Shown here: piece after piece, positions 1,353 through 45,507 of the stretch
Position numbering within the stretch: position 1 is the first letter of the stretch
How the letters are laid out: the number at the start of each line of letters is the position of its first letter
DNA from: Sminthopsis crassicaudata
Taxonomy: Eukaryota
Direction of reading: 5' to 3'
Assembly: GCF_048593235.1 (NCBI RefSeq)
Contig: NC_133622.1
Location: 239,227,198 to 239,291,197, forward strand
Length of the DNA: 64,000 nt
Position numbers and translations under genes: made by a program
Notes under the pieces: generated by a model
The model's database searches: none
Told to the model about the DNA's origin: nothing
What the model saw: the letters and a program-made list of their open reading frames with translations, nothing else

Positions 1353-2607
1353 TAGTGTGCTTTCCTTCTTAAAAATTTCTTCAAAATTTATAGAGTAGAT
1401 AACAAGTTTTGAGATTCAAGTGTATTTAGAGAATATATTCAAAATTAACAAACACTATTGTTAACAAACAATAGCAGGCTAATTTTTCCATTCCGTATAG
1501 CTTGGAAAAATGTACACTATTTGTGTCAAATATAAATTCTGAAATTTATATGAAGTGTTTCCTCTAATTCCCAGCCCCTGCTTAGAAATCACATAATAAT
1601 TCAGCAAGAGGATAAACAAACTAAATAGATAGAAAAATAGACAAAGAGATATCTCTATTCATAGATATTTATATATACATATATGCATATTGATAGATAT
1701 ACATCTATACATACACACATACACAAATGCACACAAATTTGTTAGAAAATAGACTTGAAAGAGAGATGAAATTATAGATAAAAACATATAGGAATTTTGA
1801 TAACTAAGTTAAATGATGACATTCCAGAAAGAGTGTCAAAAATTGAGTAGGGAAAAATTGAAAAGAAATAAAGATAAAAATGAATGATTATTTGTTTTAT
1901 TCCTGTCTGGAAATAAATGTTAGGAAAATTAACAAGGAAAGAAATGTATTTTTTGGATTTTCTCCATTCAGAATTTTCAGCATTTGGACATTGTTTTCAA
2001 TTGCATCATTTCATACTGACTATTAAATGTTTTATGGCTGTTGTGTTCAAAAACATGAGAGATCCTATCAGTCACCCCTAATTCTACACCCCTGTTCAAA
2101 CATAATATATCTCTCTTTACTTGGTCCTTTGCTCTCCTCTAAGTTATGAGTGCCTCTTATTCCCTCCTGTCTTCATGTATCCTTTATGAAAATTTTCACA
2201 AAACACAAATTCGAGTTTTCAGTAAAATCTAATTTCACAAATGAATTAGTACTAATTTTGTAGACCTATTATTTCTTTGACATAAATTGATTTCATTATG
2301 GACTTAAAACTCCCAATTAGACTGGAATTTGACCTGTAACTTTGAAATATTAGTGAGTTGCCTTGAATATTGAAAGGTTAAGTATTGGTGGGAGAATCAC
2401 AGTTAAGTATGTGTCAAAGGAAAGAAGAATCTAAGACTTTCTGAATTCAAGATCGATCTTTTATCGACTAGGAAATCTTGGCTTTCATGATGGAAACGTG
2501 ATTTCATTAAATGTCCTCTAATTGTCTTTATTTGTTGACCGTATCACCCTCTCATTTCACTATTCTTCTTTTCAGGATATATTTTAAAATTCCTTTCAAC
2601 TTCAGCC

Positions 2608-3543
2608 ATGATGACATCTAGCAAAAATCACAGTGTTGCTCCAGTCATTTTCATTCTGGTGGGATTTTCTGATTACCCAGAATTTCAGATTCCTCTCTTT
2701 TTGATATTTTTGACTATTTATGCAATCACTGTGATGGGTAATCTTGGAATGATTACAGTCATTATTATGAACACCAAATTACATACGCCAATGTATTTTT
2801 TTCTTAAACACTTATCCTTTGTGGATTTCTGTTACTCTACTGTTGTTGCACCAAAACTGCTGGAAAACTTAGTTGCAGAAGATAGGGCAATATCTTTTTC
2901 TGCTTGCATCACACAATTCTTCTTTGCTGCTAACTGTGCTTTGACTGACACCTTCATGTTGGCAGTGATGGCATATGATCGTTTTGTGGCCATTTGTAAT
3001 CCCCTTTTATACATGGTCATCATGTCCCAGAAACGTTGTGTTCTAATGATGGTTGCAGCATACTCCTGGGGCATACTCTTCTCTCTGCTTTTCACCTACT
3101 CTCTCCTTGTATTATCTTTTTGTGGGACTAATATTATTAATAATTTTGTCTGTGAGTATTCTGGCATACTCTCTGCCTCCTGCTCTGATAAACACTTCAG
3201 TGAGCTGATACTTTTTATATTTGCCAATTTTAATATGCTGAGTACACTCATGGTTATAACCTCTTCTTATATTTTTATTTTTGTAACTGTGATGAAAATG
3301 CATTCAGTTAGGGCAAGGCATAAAGCCTTCTCCACTTGTGCTTCTCATCTGACAGCTGTTGCAGTCTTCTATGGAACAGTCTTATTCCTCTACTGTATAC
3401 CCAACACTAAAAGCTCCTGGTTTACCACTAAATTGGGCTCTGTTTTCTATACAGTTGTCATCCCTATGCTGAACCCCCTTATATACAGTCTAAGAAACAA
3501 TGAAGTGAAGGAAACAATCAGGAAGTTAATGAACAAAAAATGA
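2608..3543 (+). CDS. Olfactory receptor, class II, OR5D-like (clade A1), 311 aa, intact
   Basis: Motifs [41 protein letters not shown] and N-glycosylation site NHS. Splice acceptor ttcttcttttcAG ends at 2575. The LYCIPNTK and GFSDYPE segments resemble the OR5D subfamily. Confidence 0.97.
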   Translation: MMTSSKNHSVAPVIFILVGFSDYPEFQIPLFLIFLTIYAITVMGNLGMITVIIMNTKLHTPMYFFLKHLSFVDFCYSTVVAPKLLENLVAEDRAISFSACITQFFFAANCALTDTFMLAVMAYDRFVAICNPLLYMVIMSQKRCVLMMVAAYSWGILFSLLFTYSLLVLSFCGTNIINNFVCEYSGILSASCSDKHFSELILFIFANFNMLSTLMVITSSYIFIFVTVMKMHSVRARHKAFSTCASHLTAVAVFYGTVLFLYCIPNTKSSWFTTKLGSVFYTVVIPMLNPLIYSLRNNEVKETIRKLMNKK

Positions 3544-4833: not shown

Positions 4834-6545
4834 TATAATTTTGTTGAGGCAAGTAGAAAATTAAAAATTATAACTCATAATTTTTAGTAATTTAATCATT
4901 TTATTAATAATTCCAGCAGATTATTAATAAGAGAGAGATCATTAGGTTACATCTCTTAGATCAGAGTTTTCATGGTAGTGGGATCACAAAGATCAGTTAT
5001 TGCCAACATATTTTGGGGTATATGACTTAGGTCACTCAAATTTTGGTCATAGAGATATCAGTTTCCATTAAACATGTCTTGATAATAGGTGTAGTCAACA
5101 TTTTCTCCTAATCTGTATAAGTAAGCACAATGAGCAGGAAAACATTCAATCAATTTAAACATTTGATTTCTTTTACTATCTCATTATATATCTTGATTTC
5201 AGGTAAGCTTAGAGAATTCCCAACACTGGATGATTTCTGGATGAAGAAATAGAAAAAGAAAAAAAAAAGCCTGGTCTAATACAATACCTCATCATTAAAT
5301 ATAGGGAAAATATTAATTTCCCCCAAAAGGAAGATTTTCCAAGAAGTAATTCTTATGAAAAATTCATTTTGAGAAAAAGTCAATTAGTTTGTAAACCCCA
5401 ATTTTATACTTACTCCACCAATATGTCCTTATTGAGAACAAACATGTATGGTGATTCAATGCTACTTTGAAATTAAAACTATTTTTAAATGGATTTGCAA
5501 TCTCTTAATCCAAATTAAAAGTGAGAATATATAGGTGTCAACAAATATTTATTCTATCTCAAATGAGATATGTCTTTATTTGTTAGGGTAAATTAAAGTT
5601 GATCCTTTTCTTGAAGCAAACAAAGATAAAAATGATAATGTATCGTCTGAATCTGAATTCTCTTCTCCTACCCTCTACCCACCAAAAAAAAAAAAAAAAA
5701 CACAAAACAAAACGAAAAACCAACTATTTTATTCCAGATACTTTCCACATTTTAGATTCTAAGAATGCTATCTTGTTTTCTGCTTGGTTGATGCAGTTGA
5801 AAAGGAGGCTAAATGAAAGTCATCTGTCACTTTCTCCCCTTCCTTTTTATTTGGTAATTTTGTTCTGACACAATATATTTTGTCAATTGTTTCCCCTGAA
5901 CTTAACATCACAGTTATCTAATTTTTCTGGTATAAATATCTGCATATTTTATGGCATTTCATATGTTCAAATCTGGAATGAAATTGTCTTTACAAAAAAG
6001 GAACCTAATGAAATATGTAGTCTATTTTTATATTAAAAAAAGTTGCTGTTGTTCAATGTTTTCATATGTGTCTGAGTCTGTGACTCTATGTGAATTTTTC
6101 TTGGAAGATATTGCAGAACTCAGCCTTTTAGTTCTCCAGAACATTTCATGTATAAAGAAATAAGGGAAACAGAATTAAGTGATCTATCCAGGATGACACA
6201 AAACTTAAATCTTTCTGACTGCCCAATGCTACCCTTTTCTGAATTACCCAGATCCCCAATAAAGAGTGATTAAACAATTGCAAGAATAACAGAATATCAG
6301 TGTTATGGAACAATATATACTTAATCATTATTATTATATCTTTGTTCCAGACAATTATATGACAAAAAGAAAAGGGGAATAAAACAGCAATTTAATTTTA
6401 AAATGAATATTGACTGTTCATGGCAATGTGCTGGGTAAGAGGAGTCTGGGAAAACACACACAATTGAATGGATAAAGGGTATTAATTCCTTTTTTGTATG
6501 GAAAATAGAGGGATTTTTTTACCACTTCATATAATATTCATAGAG

Positions 6546-6980
6546 TGTTGGGATTACTAGGTGAGAATTCAGGTTTTCTGGACAATTACAAGGTGAGAAC
6601 TCAGGTTGACTTGATAGAGGGGGCAAGCTCATTGGCTGGGGTGGTTCTTCCCAGAAGCCCTTGCATTATCCCACGCCCATTCTCTGGGAGGATAAAAAGA
6701 GACAGCACTGGGCGCAGAGAGCAGATCGGCCTGGAGAAGGATAAGAGCTGGAGGAGATTCAGAGCCAGGTTTCAAGAAGAAAAACTCTCTGCATTACATC
6801 AGGCCTGACGGGGCTCTCTGCAGGAAGGGAAGTCACTTCTAAGGACAAGAGTTAACAGCAACTGCCTGGAGACAACGGTTCACTACAGGAAGAAGAATCT
6901 GTCTGAAAGATTTGAGTAGACACAGCAGATCTCTTCCCAGAGAGCGATCCAGCAGCTTCTAGAGACGACAGCTCGTTATA
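6546..6980 (+). repeat. 5' LTR of the gag-only provirus
   Basis: Starts TGTTGG and ends CGTTATA. Reverse CCAAT (attgg) near 6631 and TATA-like GATAAAAA at 6691. No differences from 9564-9998 found by eye. Confidence 0.97.
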
Positions 6981-6982
6981 TT

Positions 6983-7000
6983 TGGCGCCCAACGTGGGGC
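6983..7000 (+). promoter_or_regulatory. Primer-binding site for tRNA-Lys1,2 (CUU)
   Basis: TGGCGCCCAACGTGGGGC, an exact 18-nt complement of the tRNA-Lys(CUU) 3' end, 2 nt after the LTR. Confidence 0.97.
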
Positions 7001-7051
7001 AAGGACTTTTGCTTATCCTGACAAGAAGAGCTAGACCAGACCTTCGCAATT

Positions 7052-7069
7052 TGGTGCCCGAACAGGGAC
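7052..7069 (+). promoter_or_regulatory. Second primer-binding site, for tRNA-Lys3 (UUU)
   Basis: TGGTGCCCGAACAGGGAC, a 17/18 match to TGGCGCCCGAACAGGGAC (HIV-1/MMTV-type PBS). The single C>T is at a CpG. Preceded by CA-ATT, like a U5 end. Confidence 0.92.
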
Positions 7070-7237
7070 AGACACAGTCCTGATTCCAGTGGAAAAGCTT
7101 CCGATCTAGATCTCAGTCTCTCTGACCCAGAACCGTGAGTAAGGAGGAAACTTTGTTAAAGATTAAGTGAGCGTGCTAATAGATAAATAAGGAACTTAAC
7201 TTGTTAAGGGCTAAACCAGGAATCTCTTATAGCTGAA

Positions 7238-9067
7238 ATGGGGCACATGTTAGCTAAATTCAATCCCTGGACCTCAGCCGACTCAACCCCAGCCCCAGAA
7301 GCAACCTCAGCCCCACCCCCATTCAGGAGTGGTACTATAGAGAGTATAATCAACATAATTGAGGAGCAGAGTTTACTTGTAACCTGGGTACAGATTGCTA
7401 AACTCTTGGCTGCATTAAGACGCACATCTCCTTGGTTCTTAGAGGAAGAAAAGATAGATGTAGATAAATGGAAGCTAGTGGGATATGAAATGAAAGAATT
7501 TCAAGCAAAAAATGGGCCTCGTTCAATTTCTGCAGAAGTATTTTATATCTACAACATAGTTCAATTAGCCTTAAACTATCAAGCAAGTTGTAGGAGAAGG
7601 AAAAGTTCTAAAAATGAACAGAGGAGGAAGTGTGAGGAAAAAAGGAACGATCAAGATCTTTCCCTAGAGCAAGAGGATTTAAATGAGGAATTATGGTATG
7701 ATTCTCTTGAAGAAGCTTCAACCCTGCCTAGAGAACAGATTATTGACAGGCCCACATCAACCCCACCTTCAGAGATGGAGGAAGAAAGAGGGGAAGAGGC
7801 AGAAACACAAACAGAATTGCCTGTGAAGAAGCCTAAGCCTATGACAAGATTAGAAAAAGCATTGGTTAAAGCTAAAAGAGAAGGACAGGATATAAGTGAT
7901 TTTATACATGCATATCCTGTGATTGAAAATACTGACTCTGTAGGTAAAAAAAGGAGAAGATATGCACCTTTAGATTTGAATAAAATTAAGGATTTGAAAA
8001 AAGGTTGTACCCTTTATGGGGCTACATCAGCTTATGTCAAAATGTTACTAGATGGTTTGTCTTATGAAGTCCTAACCCCGAATGATTGGAAATCCATAGC
8101 AAGGACATGTCTGGAACCTGGAGAAAATTTATTATGGCTTGCGGAATTTCATGAATTATGTAAAATTCAAGTCAGATGCAATTTGGAAATAGGAGTTAAC
8201 ACACAATTCACTTTTGAGCACTTAGCTGGTGAAGGTCAGTATGGAGAGAATTCAGAACAGATTCATTATACCATGACAATATATGAACAAATTGCTAAGG
8301 CTGCAATAAAAGCTTGGGGTGTCCTCCCTGGACAGAAAGATCGGGGAGAGGCTTTCACTAAAATACAGCAAGGTCCCAATGAACCTTTTGCAGATTTTGT
8401 GGGACGTTTGCAAACTGCTGTCAAAAGAACTATTGGAGAAAATTCAGCTACAGAAATAATGACCAGACATCTGGCTAAGGAAAATGCCAATGAGATTTGC
8501 AAAAGAATTATATGGGGATTAGACAAAGATGCTCCTTTAGAGGAGATCATAAGACGCTGTGCTACAGTGGGAACAAATGCTTTTTATACCCAGACAATGA
8601 TGAATGTGGAGAGACAGGGTCCCTCCTGGCAAGGGCCTTCTAGAGAAACTCGGAGATGTTTTCAATGTGGAAAAATTGGACATCTAAGAGCTCAGTGTAG
8701 ATTTGGAGATACAGTGAAAAGACAGGGTGAGAGAAGACCTAAAACCCCATGTCCAAAATGCAACAGAGGATTCCATTGGGCATCAGAGTGTAGAATAATT
8801 CAGGGAAATGGGATGAGGGGCCCAGGTCCAGGGCCCCAGGCAAAAAAGACTTGGGGCATGATGGCAGCTGATGTTACACCTAAAGAGCCTTTAGAAGGCC
8901 AGGACTCTGATTTAATCAATCAGCAGAGAAGCAATCACATGGCAGAAAGGGATTACCTGATAAGTCAGTCAAAAGGCAATCAGATTGCAAAAATGGATTA
9001 CACTTGGGGAGAATACAGGCCTTTTAAACCAACAGGGCTGTGTCCAGTGCAAACAACTCCAATGTAA
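7238..9067 (+). CDS. gag: Betaretrovirus-like Gag polyprotein, 609 aa, open
   Basis: MG start; MA motif SPWF...IDVDKWKLVG; CA motifs LTPNDWKSIARTCL and MHR FTKIQQGPNEPFADFVGRL; two CCHC knuckles CFQCGKIGHLRAQC and CPKCNRGFHWASEC; GNGMRG at the end of NC. Confidence 0.96.
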   Translation: MGHMLAKFNPWTSADSTPAPEATSAPPPFRSGTIESIINIIEEQSLLVTWVQIAKLLAALRRTSPWFLEEEKIDVDKWKLVGYEMKEFQAKNGPRSISAEVFYIYNIVQLALNYQASCRRRKSSKNEQRRKCEEKRNDQDLSLEQEDLNEELWYDSLEEASTLPREQIIDRPTSTPPSEMEEERGEEAETQTELPVKKPKPMTRLEKALVKAKREGQDISDFIHAYPVIENTDSVGKKRRRYAPLDLNKIKDLKKGCTLYGATSAYVKMLLDGLSYEVLTPNDWKSIARTCLEPGENLLWLAEFHELCKIQVRCNLEIGVNTQFTFEHLAGEGQYGENSEQIHYTMTIYEQIAKAAIKAWGVLPGQKDRGEAFTKIQQGPNEPFADFVGRLQTAVKRTIGENSATEIMTRHLAKENANEICKRIIWGLDKDAPLEEIIRRCATVGTNAFYTQTMMNVERQGPSWQGPSRETRRCFQCGKIGHLRAQCRFGDTVKRQGERRPKTPCPKCNRGFHWASECRIIQGNGMRGPGPGPQAKKTWGMMAADVTPKEPLEGQDSDLINQQRSNHMAERDYLISQSKGNQIAKMDYTWGEYRPFKPTGLCPVQTTPM

Positions 9068-9400
9068 TTGCCAGATGATGAGAAGAGATTTAGAAAGTGG
9101 TAAATAGAATGTAATTAGATAGGTTAACTGCCTGGGAGAGAGGGTTTGCTTGTATTTCTTCAGCAGGAGAAGGAATCAGATGGGTGCCAACAAGTCATAT
9201 TCGCCTTGTCCATCAGAGAGAGACAGAAAAAGAGAAAGACCTCAAAATAAAGGAGAAGATCTAAGAAACATCTGACACTGAAAGAGCATGGATAATAAGA
9301 AGACTGTTAAAGAACTTAAAAACCAGCAGGAATCATTGGACTTCCTCACACAAGATGAGAATAATGGACAATGGACTTATGGACATTTATAAATTTTCAA
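9010..9400 (+). pseudogene. Integrase C-terminal remnant followed by a decayed env TM heptad/ISD remnant
   Basis: gataggttaactgcctgggagagagggtttgcttgtatt reads DRLTAWERGFACIS..EGIRWVP (betaretroviral IN C-terminal domain). Then act gtt aaa gaa ctt aaa aac cag cag gaa tca ttg gac reads TVKELKNQQESLD, followed by atggacaat (MDN). Confidence 0.8.
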
Positions 9401-9547
9401 TTTATGATTATGATTATGTTATATACTTCTAGCATGTGTTATGTTACTATGTTACTATGTGCTTATGTAATTTATGTAATTATCTGCAATACTTCCCATA
9501 TTGATGGATTTATGTTTCAAGGTCATGACTGTCCTATGTTCTAAATC

Positions 9548-9563
9548 AAAAGAAAGGGGGAGA
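9548..9563 (+). promoter_or_regulatory. Polypurine tract
   Basis: AAAAGAAAGGGGGAGA immediately before the 3' LTR TG. Confidence 0.95.
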
Positions 9564-9998
9564 TGTTGGGATTACTAGGTGAGAATTCAGGTTTTCTGGA
9601 CAATTACAAGGTGAGAACTCAGGTTGACTTGATAGAGGGGGCAAGCTCATTGGCTGGGGTGGTTCTTCCCAGAAGCCCTTGCATTATCCCACGCCCATTC
9701 TCTGGGAGGATAAAAAGAGACAGCACTGGGCGCAGAGAGCAGATCGGCCTGGAGAAGGATAAGAGCTGGAGGAGATTCAGAGCCAGGTTTCAAGAAGAAA
9801 AACTCTCTGCATTACATCAGGCCTGACGGGGCTCTCTGCAGGAAGGGAAGTCACTTCTAAGGACAAGAGTTAACAGCAACTGCCTGGAGACAACGGTTCA
9901 CTACAGGAAGAAGAATCTGTCTGAAAGATTTGAGTAGACACAGCAGATCTCTTCCCAGAGAGCGATCCAGCAGCTTCTAGAGACGACAGCTCGTTATA
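9564..9998 (+). repeat. 3' LTR of the gag-only provirus
   Basis: 435 bp, apparently identical to 6546-6980, followed by the TSD ATAGAG. Confidence 0.97.
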
Positions 9999-10649
9999 AT
10001 AGAGTAAAAGATTTTTCTACTCTTTTCACACTTGCATCTTAGATTCATGCTTTTGAACATATAGCTTAATACTCTACAGGGATGACCATTTTTTTCCTAC
10101 ATCATATATTTTGAAATATCTCCTTACTTAAAGTACTTTAAAAATACCTTGGACAAGTTTGAAATATTTAGCAAATTCATTCTTGTGAAAGTCTTGCTTG
10201 GAGAGTAACCCAAGAAAAGTGGGATATTAGCATCCTAATTGTCTCATTTGAAAATGTCAACAAATTTCCTAGCTATGTTATTTAATTCAGAAATTTACTG
10301 TTTGTTTTTAAATAATTATAAAGTGTATGATCATTTTCCTCATTTCCAGGGTTATCTTTTATGCCTTTAATCAAATTTTTAGTTTTCTTACAAACATGAT
10401 TTTCAAAGGAATCTGAGTTTAACCTTAATCATTTACTTTACTTCTTTCTGAATATCCCCTAAAAGTGTAGTTCTTAAAATTGCTTAATAGTGTCATTTTA
10501 GTTGCTTGATGCTGTCGATTGCATGCAATGTTTCATTCATTGGATGCATATTCCAAAAGTTATCCTTTTCATAGTCTTTGTGCTGCTTTTTATTCTAGAA
10601 AATATTGTATGAGATTTTTCAGTAAAGTTTTCTTCTCTTTCTATTAGAC

Positions 10650-11978
10650 TTTCCATCAGAGCAGGTATTCTGAATTTGGGGGAGTTCTTGGAAGTGGTTG
10701 AGATTGTATGAATGCTACAGAGATTGGGGAGAATTCAAAGAAAAGCTTTCTTATAGGCACTTTTTAGCTTCCTGCAACAGTCTCATCATGTCTCAGGGAA
10801 TCCAATGATTCCTGAGAGTTTTCAAGTCTTGCAACAATCTTATCATATCTCAGGGAATACAATGATTCCTGAGGGTTTTGAGGGTTCCATTGCTAATTGT
10901 GTCCACCACTGAAAGAGCATGGCAGTTATGGCAATCGACTCATGAACATCAAAAATTGTTCATAAGACTGTTGCAGAACTTTAAAATCTTCAGGAATCAT
11001 TGGATTCCCAAGACATGATGAGACTGTTGCAAGACTTGAAGATTTTTAGAAATCATTGGATTCCCTAACACATTAAAAAAACTGTTGAAGGACTTCAAAA
11101 ACTTTCAGGGATCATTGGATTCCCTGACACGTGAAGCAATGGACAATAGATTGGTTTTGGACTATCTCTTGGCTGCTGAAGGAGGTATATGTGTGATTGT
11201 TATTTACATACCCTCCTTCTAAGACTTCTGGAAATCTTTTACAACACCATGTTGATTCATTTTCTTTGCTATATCATTACTTGCATGTATAAGTCAAAAT
11301 TGGCTATACTATATTGAGCCTGCACCGGCTATGGGGAGAGTCATCACTACTAGCCTGAGTAACACTAATATGTGCTTGTGTAATACCTCCCATGCTAATG
11401 GAGTTATATATAGTTGTTTGAAATACCCTACAGCACAGAGGAAACTGCCTAGTATCTGGTTTGACTCTCCATTTCTTTTTGGTGTTTTTACCTCCCTTCC
11501 TGAAAAGTCAGGGAGGGCATGATCACTTTTGTTCCAATACAAAAGAAAGCATGAGATGCAGAGGGTAGAAATCTGAAAGGGTGTATTTGAATCTAAGACA
11601 GCAGGGTGCTTGTAGTTAAGTACCCACTAGGTGTGAGATGGTCATTCTCTAAGCACATACCTGATGTAATGTAATGATGTGGTCAATTTAGCTGGGGTAT
11701 ACTTAGGGTAATGTGGTGATGTGATGTTCTACAGCTGCACATGCCCAGTGTGTAATGTAGTTGTGCTGAGGTATTTACAGGAGTCTCAAAGACAGAGGGC
11801 TCTTTCAGCCATGGCAATCTCAGCCACAGAGAAAATTTCAGGCTCCAGACTTCAGAGTCCAGATTTTGACCAGTCATATGGTGGCTGTTCTCCTGCCTCC
11901 TTCACTTCACTCCTCCACTAAGCCCAAAGCCTTGGGCTGATCCCTGAGGCCCACCTGAGAGCTTGCCTGGACATTACA
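10650..11978 (+). mobile_element. 3' remnant of a related ERV: env-TM repeats (partly inverted), ISD, PPT-like tract and LTR (11557-11978)
   Basis: Contains the translated segment SLDSLTREAMDNRLVLDYLLAAEGGICVIV. PPT-like aaaagaaagcatgaga (11541-11556) precedes TG...acattaCA. Shares cactgaaagagcatgg and the pre-PPT sequence with the two proviruses. Left boundary uncertain. Confidence 0.8.
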
Positions 11979-18281: not shown

Positions 18282-18415
18282 GAAGTAAGATAGACTTTTC
18301 CTAGGAGTTAATGGATTCTCCTTCTCCTACATATAAGAGTGTAGAATGAATGGACATCAATTTCACTTGTATTTCACTTTTCCTAATCCATTTTTAATTC
18401 TCTCCAACAGGAATC

Positions 18416-19360
18416 ATGGTGAGCACTGGGAAAAATCAGAGTGTGGCAGTCATATTCATCCTCTTGGGATTTTCTGAGTATCCAAAGCTCCAGGTGCCCC
18501 TCTTTCTACTGTTTCTCACCATCTATGCAGTCACTGTGGTGGGAAACTTGGGTATGATTGTGATCATCAGGATCAACCCCAAACTCCACACCCCCATGTA
18601 CTTTTTTCTCCAGCACTTGTCCTTTGTGGATTTTTGTTACTCAACTATTGCCACACCAAAATTATTAGAAAATTTAGTTGTAGAAGACAGGAGCATCTCT
18701 ATCAAGGGCTGCATCTCACAGTTTTCCATTGGTGTCACCTGTGTGGTGACAGAGTCAGTGATGTTGGCTGTGATGGCCTATGACCGCTTTGTTGCAATAT
18801 GCTATCCTTTACTTTATACAGTTTTCATGTCACCAAAACGCTGTATCCTACTAGTGTCTGTTACATATTCATGGGGAGTAATTTCTTCTATTATATTCAC
18901 TTATTCTCTTCTTGTATTATCATTTTGTGAAACGAAAATCATTAATAACTTTGTATGTGAATACTCTGTCATCCTCTCTGCTTCCTGCTCTGATAAACAC
19001 TTCAGCGAGATAATATTTTTTATCTTTGCAAATCTCAATGCATTGTGCACCTTGATCACTATCCTTACATCTTATTTTCTTATTTTTGTCACTATCTTCA
19101 AAATGAATTCATCCAGTGGAAGATATAAAGCTTTCTCCACCTGTGCCTCCCACTTGACAGCCGTTTCCATCTTTTATGGGACCATCCTCTTTCTTTATTG
19201 TATTCCCAGTTCCCAAAACTCATGGCTTTTAGTCAAAGTAGGATCTGTTCTTTATATTGTGGTAATTCCTATGATAAATCCCTTAATATATAGTCTAAGG
19301 AATAATGTTGTGAAGGAAACCATCAGGAAATTAATGCATCTCAAAATAATTTCTCAATAA
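18416..19360 (+). CDS. Olfactory receptor, OR5D-like (clade B1), 314 aa, intact
   Basis: All canonical OR motifs, NQS glycosylation site, acceptor tctccaacAG ending at 18410. Confidence 0.97.
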   Translation: MVSTGKNQSVAVIFILLGFSEYPKLQVPLFLLFLTIYAVTVVGNLGMIVIIRINPKLHTPMYFFLQHLSFVDFCYSTIATPKLLENLVVEDRSISIKGCISQFSIGVTCVVTESVMLAVMAYDRFVAICYPLLYTVFMSPKRCILLVSVTYSWGVISSIIFTYSLLVLSFCETKIINNFVCEYSVILSASCSDKHFSEIIFFIFANLNALCTLITILTSYFLIFVTIFKMNSSSGRYKAFSTCASHLTAVSIFYGTILFLYCIPSSQNSWLLVKVGSVLYIVVIPMINPLIYSLRNNVVKETIRKLMHLKIISQ

Positions 19361-21657: not shown

Positions 21658-22327
21658 TTTTTTTTAAAATAATTTTTATTATATACTTTTTTATAATATT
21701 ATCCCTTGTATTCATTTTTCCAAATTATCCCCCCTTCCTCTACTCCCTCCCCCCGATGACAGACAATCCCATACATTTTACATGTGTTACAATATAACCT
21801 AGATACAATACATGTGTGTAAATACCATTTTCTTGTTGCACAATAAGCATTAGATTCCGAAGGTACATGTAACCTGGGCAGACAGATATTAGTGCTAACA
21901 ATTTACATTCACTTCCCAGTGTTCCATCTCTGGGTGTAGCTACCTCTGTCCATCATTGATCAACTGGAAGTGAGTTGGCTCTTCTTTATGTTGAAGATTT
22001 CCACTTCCATCAGAATACATCCTCATACATTATGGTTGTTGAAGTGTACAGTGATCTTCTGGTTCTGCTCATTTCATTCAGCATCAGTTGATGTAAGTCT
22101 CTCCAGGCCTCTCTGTATTCCTCCTGCTGGTCATTTCTTACAGAGCAATAATATTCCATAAACTTCATATACCATAATTTACCCAACCATTCTCCAACTG
22201 ATGGACACCCATTCAACTTCCAGTTTCTAGCTACAACAAAAAGAGCTGCCACAAACATTTTGGCACATATATGTCTCTTTCCGCTCTTTAGTATTTCTTT
22301 GGGATATAAGCCCAGTAATAGTACTGC
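21658..22327 (-). mobile_element. Young LINE-1 3' end, cut by a deletion
   Basis: T-run then ataatattatcccttgtattc...ctgatgtaagtctctccaggcc...gggatataagcccagtaatagtactgc. Matches the L1 3' ends at 32.8, 48.1 and 59.2 kb. Confidence 0.88.
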
Positions 22328-22759
22328 AGGAAGGGAAGTCACTTCTCTGGACAAGAGTTAGCAGCAACTGCCTGGAGACAACAGTTCACTACAGGAAGAA
22401 GAATCTGTCCGAGAGATTTGAGTAGACACAGCAGATCTCTTCCCAGAGAGCCCCGTCAGGCCTGATGTAATGCAGAGACTTCTCCTCTTCCTGGAGTGCT
22501 GTCCTCCAGCCCTTGTCCTTCCCCAGTCCAGAATGCTTGTCCAGGCCCAATGTTGCCTCTTTTATCCTCCCAGAGAATGGGCGTGGGATAGTGCAAGGGC
22601 TTCTGGGAAGAACCACTTCAACCAATGAGCTTGTTCCTTCTAGGATTCCTAAGGTGTAAACTCCCTTTACAGGTCTGAGCCAGAGAACTGTCAAGTCAAC
22701 CTGAGTTCTCACCTTGTAATTGTCCAGACAACCTGAATTCTCACCTAGTAATCCTAACA
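22324..22759 (-). mobile_element. Rearranged LTR of the same family as 6546-6980, with an inverted 117-bp segment
   Basis: 22452-22759 is the reverse complement of U3 (TGTTAGGATTACTAGGTGAG...). 22327-22443 matches 6821-6937 in the forward orientation. Confidence 0.92.
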
Positions 22760-24620: not shown

Positions 24621-27451
24621 AAATGTCTGCAATGTGTCAATAATTATGGCAAACATTAAAAATACAAAGAATGAATATAATTATAATATTACAACATTTT
24701 GAATTATAGTTTTCTCTTGTGACTTGATCTTGGGAAAGTACTTCATTGATAATAGTAAAAGAAATTTTTGTCAATTCCAAATAACATGAATGGAAAATAA
24801 ATCTCTCATAGTAACTATCCCCTCTGATTTCAAGGAAATCCTATTCCCTAAAGCCAGAATTTTCACTTCTTGCTTGTTTGGGCCCTAGCCAGGAAAGGTC
24901 ATTAGTTTGTAGCATCACTTTCCCAAGGTGTGTTAAGATACAAGTAAAAGTGGCAGCATCCATGCAGAGTCAAGTGAAGAGCACAATAGGAACATGGCAC
25001 AATAGGAACACGTGTCTTTCACTCTGAGTTTTTCTGCCAAATGTAGAGATTTTTTTGTACAATACAAAAATGGTTTAAGTTTCCATTTGCATAGGCTATT
25101 AAAATGTCCTTTACTGACTTCTGATTCTGGTCAAATTTTAATGATGTGGTATTTTCTACTATGACCATTGTTTTCTATTATTTACAAGCTCAATATACAT
25201 TGAACCATGGATCTAGGAATCAACTAGCCTTAATTTGATGATAACTGTACTTGAACCTAGAAAATACCTTTTATTTTCTTTTCAGAAAATTTCATCAAAT
25301 GTTTTGATTTGAAAGGAACTGCCAAGTAAAGGAGGTAGGTCCTCTCATTTTATATTTTTCACTATCATAATTTCACATTTAGTGGATGGTTATTATTTTT
25401 AGATCAATGTGATAAGCCCCAAGGATACCAGGAAGTATCAGCCTCTGAATTCGAGATCTCACAGTTCATGTGGTAAGAGATACCTACAAATCAAAACCAA
25501 ATGCAGATATTAGGACCACAAACTAAATGCCTACTGATTCTTATAATTTCTGTAATTGATTTTAAGAGAAAGTGCAATCAATAAGTATATTTCCTGAGAA
25601 AATACTTGTGAAAAAGCACAATGGAACAAAACCTGAAGGAAATGGGAAACCCTGAAGAGTGAGGGCATTTTAGGAACAATTGTTTGAGTAAAATATTTCA
25701 GGTAATTATGATTAGTATATTATGTCTGAAACAGTGCCTTCATTTAGGAGAACATTTTGGAGATAAGGCTATGGAACTGGGTATTTCTCACTTTAAAACC
25801 ATACTTGAATATCAAGTAATATACTTGATGATTTTCTTTAGCTTAGCAGATACTGCAGATACTGCAGTGCAGAGACTGACCCAGATGATACCAAAGCCTT
25901 TTCTTCTATCAAATCTCAGGTGAAGATACCAGGAGAAAAGTTTTCTGGTTAAGAATCTTCTGTTGTTCCAAATGAGCATTTCTCCCTATCTCTGCTCAAA
26001 CTATTATAAAGTCAAGGAAAGGTCAGGATCTCTTATTTACCCCCCCCACACACACAAATAATTATATGCATTAAATCTATTCTTACATGTGTCAGCTTTG
26101 AAAAGCAAGTGTAGGCAAAAGGTTTTTCTAGATAGTGACCACCTCATTTTTACCTCCTTGACAATACCGTTGTCTAATAGCTTGTTTAGAGAAAGAGTTT
26201 TGACTACGAAGATATTTTTCTATATTATTAGAAATTATAAATTTTAGCAAAATAATAATGGCAAGTAAGGATTGCAAATTATTTAAATGATTGATCATAC
26301 TCAAAGATAGACTTTATTTCTAGAATGTGATTTCCTATATATTATATATATATACCCATATATGTATGTATTTTAATTTTTCAACTTTTTTATTTATAAA
26401 ATAGATAATTAATGAGTTCTCAGATGCATGTACATTTGGAGAATATACTAAAAATCAGGGAACATATTTCAATGGGTCAGAAAAGGCTATTTTCTTAATT
26501 TTGAATAGCTTGTGATAACAGAATATTTATAAAAATCAGAAATACAAGTTATGAAGTTTAGGACTTGTTTCCTATACTTCTCATCATGTGTATTTATAGA
26601 CTTGGAAAAGAAATTAAAGTATAAAAAGGAACATATGGTGTTAAGGAAAACTAAACTAAATGATGCGATTTTTGTTACACAGAAATTTTTGGATAGAATT
26701 TCTAGAAGCTGGGTAGAAAAAAAAACTGCAAAGAAAGAAAGTTTATAATGTAGGATTATTTTGTTTTATTCATGTGTGAAAACTGATCCTGGAAATACAG
26801 CAAAAAAAGAAGCTTTGTTCTTTGGCTTTTCTCTATTCAGAATTGTCAGCATTTAGAAATTACTTCTATTTGCATCATTTCCTCTGTTTTATGACTATTG
26901 CACTCAGATCCATGATAGATCATGTCACTCACTCCTAATTCCACCATCATATTCTTTGCTTGCAACCATAACATTTCCCCCCTCTCTAGTTCTCTCCTTT
27001 CTTCTCCTCCAACTTTCCTCATCTTTTCTTTATGATTTTTCACAAAATGCAATTTGAATTGAGTTTTCAATAAATACTAATTTCACAAGTCAATTAGTAT
27101 TAATTTTGTAGACCTATAATTTATCACAAATAGATTTCATTATAAAATAAACATCCACTTTAGATTTGCATCTGATCTGTAATATGGGGTACTTGTGAAT
27201 TGCCTGAACTACTTAGAAGCTGTGGATTTGTTTTGTAGAATCCCAGGTTAATATGTATCTGAAGAAGTTAAGAAACTAAGACTTTCTCAATTCAAGATTC
27301 ATCTTTTATCTACTAGACATGGTGGAAATGTGTGATTCTTATAAATGTGTTCTAATTGTCTTTATTTATTGAGATATATCAATTGTTTTTGTCTCTCATT
27401 TTACTATTCTTCTTTTCAGGAAATATTTTAAAATTTCTTTCAACTTTACCC

Positions 27452-28387
27452 ATGATGATCACTGAAAAAAACCATAGTGGTGTTCCAGTCATTTTCATTC
27501 TCTTGGGATTTTCTGACTACCCAGAATTTCAGATTCCATTCTTCCTGATATTTTTGACCATCTATATAATCACTGTGATGGGGAATCTTGGAATGATTGC
27601 AATCATTATCATGAACCCCAAATTACATACTCCAATGTATTTTTTCCTCAAGCACTTATCTTTTGTGGATTTCTGTTCCTCCACTGTTGTTGCACCAAAG
27701 CTGCTGGAAAACTTAGTTGCAAAAGATAGGACAGTGTCCATCTCTATTTGCATCACACAATTCTTCTTTTTTGCTACTTATGCTTTGACTGACACTTTCA
27801 TGTTGGCAGTGATGGCATATGATCGCTTTGTGGCCATTTGTAATCCCCTTTTATACATGACCATCATGTCCCAGAAACGTTGTGTCCTGCTGGTGGTGGC
27901 AGCATACTCCTGGGGCACACTCTTCTCTCTGGTTTTCACCTATTCTCTCCTTACATTATCTTTTTGTGGGACTAACATCATTGATAATTTTGTCTGTGAC
28001 TATTCTGGCATACTCTATGCTGCCTGCTCTGATAAACACTTTAGTGAGCTGATTCTTTTTATAGTTACTAATTTTAATATGCTGAGCACACTCATGGTCA
28101 TTATTTCTTCTTATGTTTTTATTTTTGTAACTGTCATGAAGATGCATTCAGCTAGAGCAAGGCACAAGGCGTTCTCTACTTGCGCCTCTCACCTGACAGC
28201 TGTTGGAGTCTTTTATGGAACAATCTTATTCTTGTACTGTATACCCAATACTAAAAGCTCCTGGTTTACTGCTAAATTGGGATCTGTTTTCTATGCAGTG
28301 GTCATCCCCATGCTGAACCCCCTTATATACAGTCTGAGGAACAATGAAGTGAAGGAAATACTCAGGAAGTTAATGGGCAAAATATGA
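27452..28387 (+). CDS. Olfactory receptor, OR5D-like (clade A2), 311 aa, intact
   Basis: True start is ATG 27452 (MMITEKNHS), aligned with the paralogs and downstream of the acceptor ttcttttcAG ending at 27419. All OR motifs present. Confidence 0.96.
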   Translation: MMITEKNHSGVPVIFILLGFSDYPEFQIPFFLIFLTIYIITVMGNLGMIAIIIMNPKLHTPMYFFLKHLSFVDFCSSTVVAPKLLENLVAKDRTVSISICITQFFFFATYALTDTFMLAVMAYDRFVAICNPLLYMTIMSQKRCVLLVVAAYSWGTLFSLVFTYSLLTLSFCGTNIIDNFVCDYSGILYAACSDKHFSELILFIVTNFNMLSTLMVIISSYVFIFVTVMKMHSARARHKAFSTCASHLTAVGVFYGTILFLYCIPNTKSSWFTAKLGSVFYAVVIPMLNPLIYSLRNNEVKEILRKLMGKI

Positions 28388-43696: not shown

Positions 43697-44072
43697 TGTA
43701 ATGTTCTGTTGTCTCCTGAGACTGCCAATCACTCTCTGGGAGCAGATCTGCTGTCTCAACTCAATCTCTCAGCCAGATTTTTCTTCCTGTAGCAAGCTGC
43801 CAACTCTGACGTAGAGTAGAGACTTCTGCCCTTGCTCAATGTTGTTTCTTTTATCTTCCCAGAGAATGGGCATGGAATAACTCAGGGGCTTCTTGGAAAA
43901 AATATTTCAACCAATGAACTTGCTACTCTTAAACATGCAAGCTCCTCCCCAGAAGTTCAAAGGGGTAAAACTCCCTTTAAGGCTGGAACTAGAAAATTTT
44001 TAAGTACAGACTTAGCACTTAGTAAGAAACTAATATCTCATTATCTCATTAGCAATTAGTAAGAACCTAACA
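43697..44072 (-). repeat. 3' LTR of the minus-strand provirus
   Basis: 376 bp, roughly 10% diverged from 45133-45507 by manual count. R/U5 is homologous to 6880-6980 but U3 differs. Confidence 0.95.
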
Positions 44073-45132: not shown

Positions 45133-45507
45133 TGTAATGTTCTGTCATCTCCAGAGACTGCCAATCACTCTCTGGGAGGAGATCTGCTGTCTCAACTCAA
45201 TCTCTCAGCCAGATTCTTCTTCTTGTAGCAAGCCACCAAGTATGACCTAGAGTAGACTTCTGCCCTTGCTCAATGTTGCTTTTTTTATCCTCCCAGAGAA
45301 TGGGAATGGAATAACTAAGGGGCTTCTGGGAAAAAAAATACTTCAACCAATGAACTTGCTCCTTCTAAACATGTAAGCTCCTCCTCAGGAGTTCACAGGG
45401 GTAAAACTCCCCTAAAGGCCTGAATTAGAGAATTGTTAAGTACTGACTTAGCACTTAGTAAGAACCTAATTCTCATTATCTCATTAACACTTAGTAAGAA
45501 CCTAACA
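45133..45507 (-). repeat. 5' LTR of the minus-strand provirus
   Basis: 375 bp. The U5 end (CATTACA on minus) lies 3 nt from the tRNA 3' end. Confidence 0.95.

Follow-up and report, generated by a model that had tools for sequence, protein, structure and literature searches.

The window, by which we mean the whole 64,000-nt stretch of DNA analysed here, carries at 6546–9998 a class II element that is young, gag-only and 3.45 kb (3,453 bp) long, and whose parts are arranged as follows:

6540..6545, + strand: left target-site duplication (TSD), 6 bp, identical to 9999–10004
6546..6980, + strand: 5′ LTR, short form, 435 bp, with 435/435 bases identical to the 3′ LTR
6983..7000, + strand: outer primer-binding site (PBS), for tRNA-Lys(CTT), 18/18 against the end of the host tRNA gene; the LTR stops 2 nt before it
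7001..7048, + strand: CA-terminated spacer, read from its alignment with donor LTR ends as the shortened U5 of an older donor LTR family
7049..7051, + strand: 3-nt gap from the inner CA to the inner PBS (donor copies have a 3–4-nt gap)
7052..7069, + strand: inner PBS, for tRNA-Lys(TTT), 17/18 in the window copy
7070..7237, + strand: leader, with a start common to the Lys3-type donor copies
7238..9067, + strand: open gag frame of 609 aa (matrix, capsid and two zinc knuckles; Pfam Gag_p10, Gag_p24, Gag_p24_C and zf-CCHC)
9130..9258, + strand: integrase C-terminal remnant (IN_DBD_C, E=0.0011, below the curated cut-off)
9298..9345, + strand: possible env immunosuppressive-domain (ISD) remnant, from translation by eye; repeat family D8
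9548..9563, + strand: polypurine tract
9564..9998, + strand: 3′ LTR, short form, identical to the 5′ LTR
9999..10004, + strand: right TSD, identical to 6540..6545

The Gag protein matches a predicted Sminthopsis crassicaudata protein at 98% and predicted Sarcophilus harrisii proteins at 43–60%; the remainder of pol, the protease, the reverse transcriptase (RT) and env are all absent from the window element. The initial annotation was right in placing two PBSs within one element, but what it called a provirus is not a full one, being an LTR–gag–integrase remnant–LTR arrangement. A second type of gag shares the leader and the LTRs and differs in the matrix region (L205, L206, L207, L224 and L284, compared with window 7245–7766), with ~70% protein identity over the N-terminal part. 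Both window LTRs terminate in TA (6979–6980 and 9997–9998), where the relatives have CA, and the TSD is exact: either the integrase acted on a TA terminus, or the change passed from one LTR to its partner by conversion. The motifs AATAAA, ATTAAA and TATAA are absent from the LTR and leader (6546–7240), where only a GATAAA occurs, at 6691; thus, the promoter and poly(A) signals are either non-canonical or simply not recognised. Elsewhere in the window, rearranged or partial LTRs related to 6546–6980 are found at 22324–22759, with one part inverted relative to the other, 43706–43923 and 45142–45367. An open 320-codon frame at 18398–19360 (+), olfactory receptor-like by eye, lies in a duplicated cluster, with paralogous stretches near 2549–3319 and 27393–28163.

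The pair of PBSs bears out what had been read from the letters alone. With the tRNA-Lys(CTT) and tRNA-Lys(TTT) genes located in the same genome as references, 6983–7000 is a perfect Lys1,2 PBS, matching the reverse-complemented 3′ end of tRNA-Lys(CTT) plus CCA at 18/18 positions, and 7052–7069 is a Lys3 PBS matching tRNA-Lys(TTT) at 17/18. They are spaced 51 nt apart, CA-ATT directly precedes the inner site, and a scan of the whole window for Lys PBS motifs yielded these two and no further one. A 17/18 match would arise at random within 100 nt with a probability of ~5e-9, and the single mismatch in the window copy is a CpG-type change. Indeed, the inner PBS is perfect in 57/80 short-LTR copies and, among 23 long full copies, in 18, with three others one change off and two carrying a Lys1,2 sequence. 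A separate tRNA-Lys(CTT)-like gene at L062 (1498–1571), to which ARAGORN assigns the anticodon TTA (stop), is probably a pseudogene.

The window element is one member of a large family. An exact pattern spanning the inner-site junction (spacer end plus inner PBS start) has at least 2,473 matches in the genome, against 0 for the control. In a positional sample, comprising the first 100 such matches along contig C1, the outer PBS or its one recurrent variant lies 68–69 nt upstream in 100/100 copies. Copy length is ~3.5 kb in 65 of the 85 copies measured and ~6.3–6.5 kb in nine; the LTRs are ~373–482 nt long, many of them 464–468 nt, and their divergence within a copy has a median of 0.2%, with 27/72 pairs identical. 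Of the nine ~6.3-kb copies, six have both the gag-pro and the pol frame open, with no further long frame and no env. The pol of one ~6.3-kb copy displays RVT_1, RVT_thumb, RNase_H, Integrase_Zn, rve and IN_DBD_C domains, and its best PDB match is the 7sr6 polymerase, followed by the 7usf and 3jca integrases, which we take to be HERV-K and MMTV proteins. Thus, the family is class II (betaretrovirus-like) in its RT and integrase, and combines these with a p10 matrix, a p24 capsid and two zinc knuckles. Priming by Lys tRNAs and a 6-bp TSD are features of class II ERVs, and the family has both. Betaretroviruses typically have a dUTPase before the protease and a frameshift between gag and pro; in the ~6.3-kb copies (L103–L202) gag and protease share one 795-codon stop-free frame, which pol overlaps in another frame, and no dUTPase match was obtained at E<=0.01. 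The element is covered by contigs of sequencing runs guessed to be RNA, all 21 from one organism, a coverage that is not proof of transcription.

Where a canonical element has a single PBS and a single U5 end, this family features two PBSs and two TSD-flanked U5 ends. Genome sites in which the spacer end is followed by a flank other than the PBS number 269 (control, 0), and a similar filter for the short end gave 2,053 matches, a check of 30 of which revealed two false ones and several segmental duplicates; the crude long share from these two figures is 12%. On inspection, the long end was real in 88/90 cases, the two false junctions being left out, and these ends belong to 49 solo LTRs, 37 3′ LTRs and two unplaced cases. 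A TSD with at most one mismatch flanks 40/49 of the solo long LTRs, the other nine lacking a clean one by automatic call, and is visible at 15/37 of the long 3′ LTRs, a count limited by the DNA examined. The positional sample comprises 80 short copies, seven long, two tandem and 11 without a 3′ LTR; with the tandem copies and those without a 3′ LTR left out, seven of the 87 copies with two LTRs are long (8%, 95% interval 3–16%). Five long ends found in both samples were entered once. The long LTRs are 68–69 nt longer than the short ones and include the outer PBS and the spacer, so that 7001..7048 is their terminal part: they stop where it stops, with TSDs present. In all seven sampled long copies the TSD adjoins the long end and is missing from the short one, and in the reciprocal control on short copies 0/78 showed a TSD match at the long distance. 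Moreover, the outer-PBS allele is concordant between both LTRs in 14/14 long copies scored. Hence, LTRs extending to 7048, for which the initial annotation proposed searching among the copies, exist in the hundreds, and its prediction that priming from the inner PBS would extend U5 by ~70 nt agrees closely with the observed length. The short LTRs of the window copy suggest that this particular copy was primed from its outer PBS (6983..7000).

Further traces of priming are recorded in the PBSs themselves. As passages of Cullen and Schorn 2020 (PMC7472051) state, the last 18 nt of the primer are copied into the plus strand; hence, a rewritten PBS marks the position at which a primer sat. In 10 copies a Lys1,2 sequence has replaced the inner Lys3 site, and among those with a 3′ LTR six of eight are long with TSDs present, compared with 7/87 in the positional sample (Fisher p=4.8e-5), the other two being short. 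In L357 a 73-nt copy of tRNA-Lys(CTT), 71/73 identical to the host gene, stands right after the long end. Copying of the primer tRNA past 18 nt, whole in L357 and long or partial in L270 and L292, indicates that the usual stop was read through. Conversely, L232 and L066 carry an outer site rewritten to Lys3. The rewritten PBSs thus speak against the notion of priming kept separate by lineage, given that either tRNA appears able to prime at either site; the predicted duplex energies, −24 to −28 kcal/mol for cross-priming versus −38 to −42 for the cognate pairs, would allow this.

Errors of strand transfer are also in evidence. Spacer-deleted copies, with either PBS, account for about 7/30 in a set drawn from 64 sites and 3/30 in one drawn from 254 sites, and are scattered in the gag-core tree; such copies are to be expected if the second strand transfer sometimes hits the wrong site. 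In two samples, 5/30 and 5/10 cases jump to unrelated sequence straight after the 18-nt PBS. Separately, ~11/30 Lys1,2 PBS sites with other flanks display head-to-head LTR-PBS/PBS-LTR joins, often between LTR families, at about position 1500 of L268, L269, L273, L275, L277–L280, L283, L288 and L290; these apparently represent two strong-stop DNAs primed on each other.

Taken as read from integrated DNA, the TSDs, LTR lengths and tRNA footprints make it very probable that both PBSs are used, and the LTR-length counts suggest that the inner site primes roughly a tenth of insertions. We accordingly favor, with a probability of about 85%, an explanation of the whole in which the two tandem PBSs yield either type of end through reverse transcription starting from the outer or the inner site. 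Both sites would act on one RNA. Priming at the outer one, mostly by tRNA-Lys(CTT), would make the outer CA the terminus of the DNA, with the inner site remaining part of the leader. If the inner one is primed, mostly by tRNA-Lys(TTT), the spacer and outer PBS would be copied into both LTRs, and the integrase would take the donor’s old CA end. Short insertions (~9/10) or long ones (~1/10) would result. As short and long copies should yield the same leader RNA, the form would be chosen anew in each round.

The outer site has a recurrent variant (one substitution and one inserted base, e.g., L104 and L106) in about a third of the copies. It occurs on all linked backgrounds, independently of linked markers, and in 30/80 short versus 42/88 long LTRs (p=0.21). 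Outside its normal context we found it at only three sites, all of this family, compared with 254 for the perfect Lys1,2 PBS with other flanks; in L263 the variant sits at the inner position with unrelated DNA after it. A third host tRNA was considered as its source and rejected: two patterns matched no tRNA gene, and the variant is confined to this family. We read it as heritable and primed by tRNA-Lys(CTT) through a G-U pair and a bulge, for which the predicted energy is −35.3 kcal/mol as against −41.8 for the perfect site. In this it parallels the mismatched PBSs that are common in ETn and MusD, going by passages of PMC7472051.

Whether natural selection holds the pair together is a distinct question. 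It is conceivable, though we rather doubt it, that the pair is actively maintained, either evading control by tRNA fragments or KRAB-zinc-finger proteins or buffering the tRNA supply, a reading that takes the mismatched outer variant too as a means of escape. Consistent with this, the pair is retained in LTR subfamilies with a gag that matches that of the window at only 89–92%, spacer-deleted forms arise repeatedly and yet are rare relative to the 2,473 intact junctions, and the outer variant is common, like the mismatched PBSs described for ETn/MusD in those passages of PMC7472051. However, the inner PBS of the short copies is not better conserved than the spacer, with non-CpG deviations at 31/880 positions (3.5%) versus 24/2,080 (1.2%), much of the inner-PBS deviation stemming from a few drifted lineages; a drifted inner site is also seen in older lineages. 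Moreover, the spacer is perhaps kept for packaging or structure instead of priming, and the excess of the variant in long LTRs falls short of significance. Thus, the pair probably persists as tolerated and occasionally refreshed, not through an established benefit, and the proposal that two working PBSs for different tRNAs are kept as a hedge against host PBS-targeted silencing is a tentative one that we judge to be the less probable. If it were true, each of thousands of insertions would document which primer and which site had been chosen in the germ line.

The origin of the arrangement can be traced to some depth. Older LTR subfamilies already have the same PBS pair, a ~70-nt spacer and long solo LTRs with TSDs (L240, L251 and L261); hence, the pair predates the present burst. 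A looser-matching search of flanking DNA already collected uncovered a candidate donor in nine LTRs of an unrelated family. In these, the first 22 nt of the spacer recur with 0–3 mismatches close to the 3′ terminus, immediately downstream of the poly(A)-signal region; TSDs of their own flank six of these LTRs. Three donor LTRs can be aligned with the older 69-nt spacer over its entire length and terminate at the same position (scores 60–62, shuffle maxima 31–39), and the donor and present LTR families have no overall similarity (best local score 24). Ninety donor ends precede a PBS-like start, which by eye is of the Lys3 type after a 3–4-nt gap in ~30 and mostly of the Lys1,2 type in the others. 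Two donor copies with a Lys3-type PBS are located at C1:532789957 and C1:446223779, minus strand. Fifteen of the Lys3-type ends run directly into the same five leader bases as the present family, and in one of these 15 copies leader homology continues past them, with a downstream motif at the expected distance. A different LTR family that ends in a homologue of 7001–7048 and leads into a Lys3 PBS was therefore found, as the initial annotation had suggested looking for. The donor family’s possession of both PBS types undercuts the associated framing of Lys1,2 (MPMV) and Lys3 (MMTV) as marks of separate lineages.

Very probably, then, the U5 tip, PBS and leader start of the donor were captured. 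The idea that the pair is the scar of a recombination holds in so far as these three parts match the insert, but the inner site would be more than a scar, as it primes and gives daughter copies with long LTRs. The junction lies exactly at the 3′ end of the 18-nt outer PBS, and this position, together with the frequent jumps seen there, suggests an aberrant second strand transfer. We lean towards this route of LTR replacement, in which the plus-strand strong-stop DNA, consisting of the new LTR and an 18-nt Lys1,2 copy, would have made its second jump onto donor DNA and landed just behind the donor poly(A) signal. The donor LTR would thereby have been replaced, with its U5 tip, PBS and leader staying in place.

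The window itself contains an old remnant (~10,770–11,978) that displays ISD-like tandem repeats related to 9298–9345 and a donor-type LTR (~11556–11978). That LTR is 66–69% to L099 and sits behind repeats related to the element’s 3′ region, a hint that the whole body of the element may descend from the donor lineage. An exact-anchor search for a donor without the outer PBS recovered none, its 26 matches being mostly older double-PBS subfamilies and deletions. Other Lys3-primed families were tried as relatives and proved unrelated (gag 22–33%), and a comparison of the spacer with reverse-transcribed tRNA was negative. Several older copies (L237, L238, L251, L258 and L374) have two or three tandem repeats of the spacer’s 3′ part before the inner PBS.

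A duplication inside the family’s own U5, as opposed to capture, is a most improbable source of the spacer. It could point to the older sibling LTR L278, which has a 16/18 look-alike of the spacer end, and to the repetition of part of the spacer in some older copies. The likeness in L278 does not reach significance, however, with p=0.05 as the best of 78 tests, and colinearity with the donor spans ~69 nt and extends into the PBS and leader, with the donor and present LTR families being overall unalike.

Returning to the use of both sites by one family, its trees bear on the idea that the long and short copies are two separate subfamilies, each limited to its own site. In a gag-core tree of 100 copies, from which 23 of 123 were dropped for having too little of the gag core, the 20 long copies require 20 changes of form (shuffled mean 18.5), none of them has another long copy as its nearest neighbour (0/20), and the median distances are alike for long–long (0.023), long–short (0.022) and short–short (0.021) pairs; the tree is poorly resolved, with 3/96 branches starred. 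In a tree of 160 LTRs the form label needs 47 changes, compared with 52.8 in shuffled data (23/500 shuffles as low), and the starred branches force at least 11. Thus, long and short LTRs are interspersed on the LTR tree with mild clustering. This clustering is what the idea of separate subfamilies has in its favor, and we give it very little credence in view of the forced changes on the LTR tree and the number of changes and like distances in the gag tree. The clustering, along with the poor resolution of the gag tree, does mean that some source-dependent bias is possible. Least probable of all is that the inner site is a dead scar, with the long LTRs arising by recombination or deletion after insertion: the outer end in ~9/10 copies and the drift of the inner site in some lineages would fit it, but TSDs flank the long end exactly, full copies have both LTRs long, and long copies, including L357, bear sequence copied from a tRNA at the inner site.

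If both sites are used as proposed, thousands of natural insertions depart from the rule that an element has one PBS and one U5 end. Each copy would record the site in its LTR length and often the primer in its PBS sequence; hence, primer choice, cross-priming, PBS correction and strand-transfer errors become countable in the germ line, not in vectors. The family might also capture an LTR replacement with the junctions of both parents still readable, which would represent one route to new LTRs and to a tRNA switch. Furthermore, there are two LTR lengths within a single family, and the long solo LTRs have an internal PBS that could recruit PBS-binding repressors. In the literature searched, with subscription journals, Repbase and Dfam lying outside the search, we came across no natural element that combines two tandem priming sites with LTRs of two lengths; accordingly, an existing annotation in subscription papers or repeat libraries is possible.

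Among known systems, one close parallel is with laboratory HIV-1 carrying dual PBSs, for which Voronin and Pathak in 2004 and Li et al. in 1997 reportedly observed frequent dual initiation and stable maintenance. Both have two PBSs on one RNA, but the HIV-1 versions are engineered or culture-derived and not germ-line. In anatomy, and compared from descriptions, the family resembles MEBrv 3, which passages of Harding et al. 2024 (PMC11334065) present as an env-less class II ERV amplified in Dasyuridae. The two have in common a class II pol, gag-pro-pol without env, identical LTRs, a very high copy number and a dasyurid host. MEBrv 3 is also described with an ISD remnant behind pol, to which the ISD-like motif noted by eye at 9298–9345 might correspond. 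MEBrv 3 is given there as ~7.3 kb with ~469-nt LTRs, whereas the full copies here, at 6.27–6.48 kb, are ~1 kb shorter; the words “PBS”, “primer” and “tRNA” do not occur in the main text of that paper. In ETn, MusD and IAP, passages of Cullen and Schorn 2020 (PMC7472051) describe mismatched PBSs as common, with perfect revertants across the tree, and switching between Lys3 and Lys1,2 as in the present family. Those elements are described with one PBS each, however, and tandem sites or two LTR lengths are not described in these passages. Finally, Drosophila gypsy has 5′ and 3′ tRNA-Lys2 sites, of which only the 5′ one primes, and Ty3 has a bipartite PBS (passages of PMC1635307). By that account both have two tRNA-binding sites for one tRNA species at opposite genome ends. 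In a bipartite PBS the second site pairs with another part of the same tRNA and does not prime on its own. The arrangement described here is not of this kind: further complementarity to the tRNA bodies amounts to at most 6–8 nt, and the inner site is a full 3′-end match to a different tRNA with a DNA end of its own. Unlike gypsy and Ty3, it thus comprises complete 18-nt sites for different tRNAs, 51 nt apart, both of which appear to set DNA ends.
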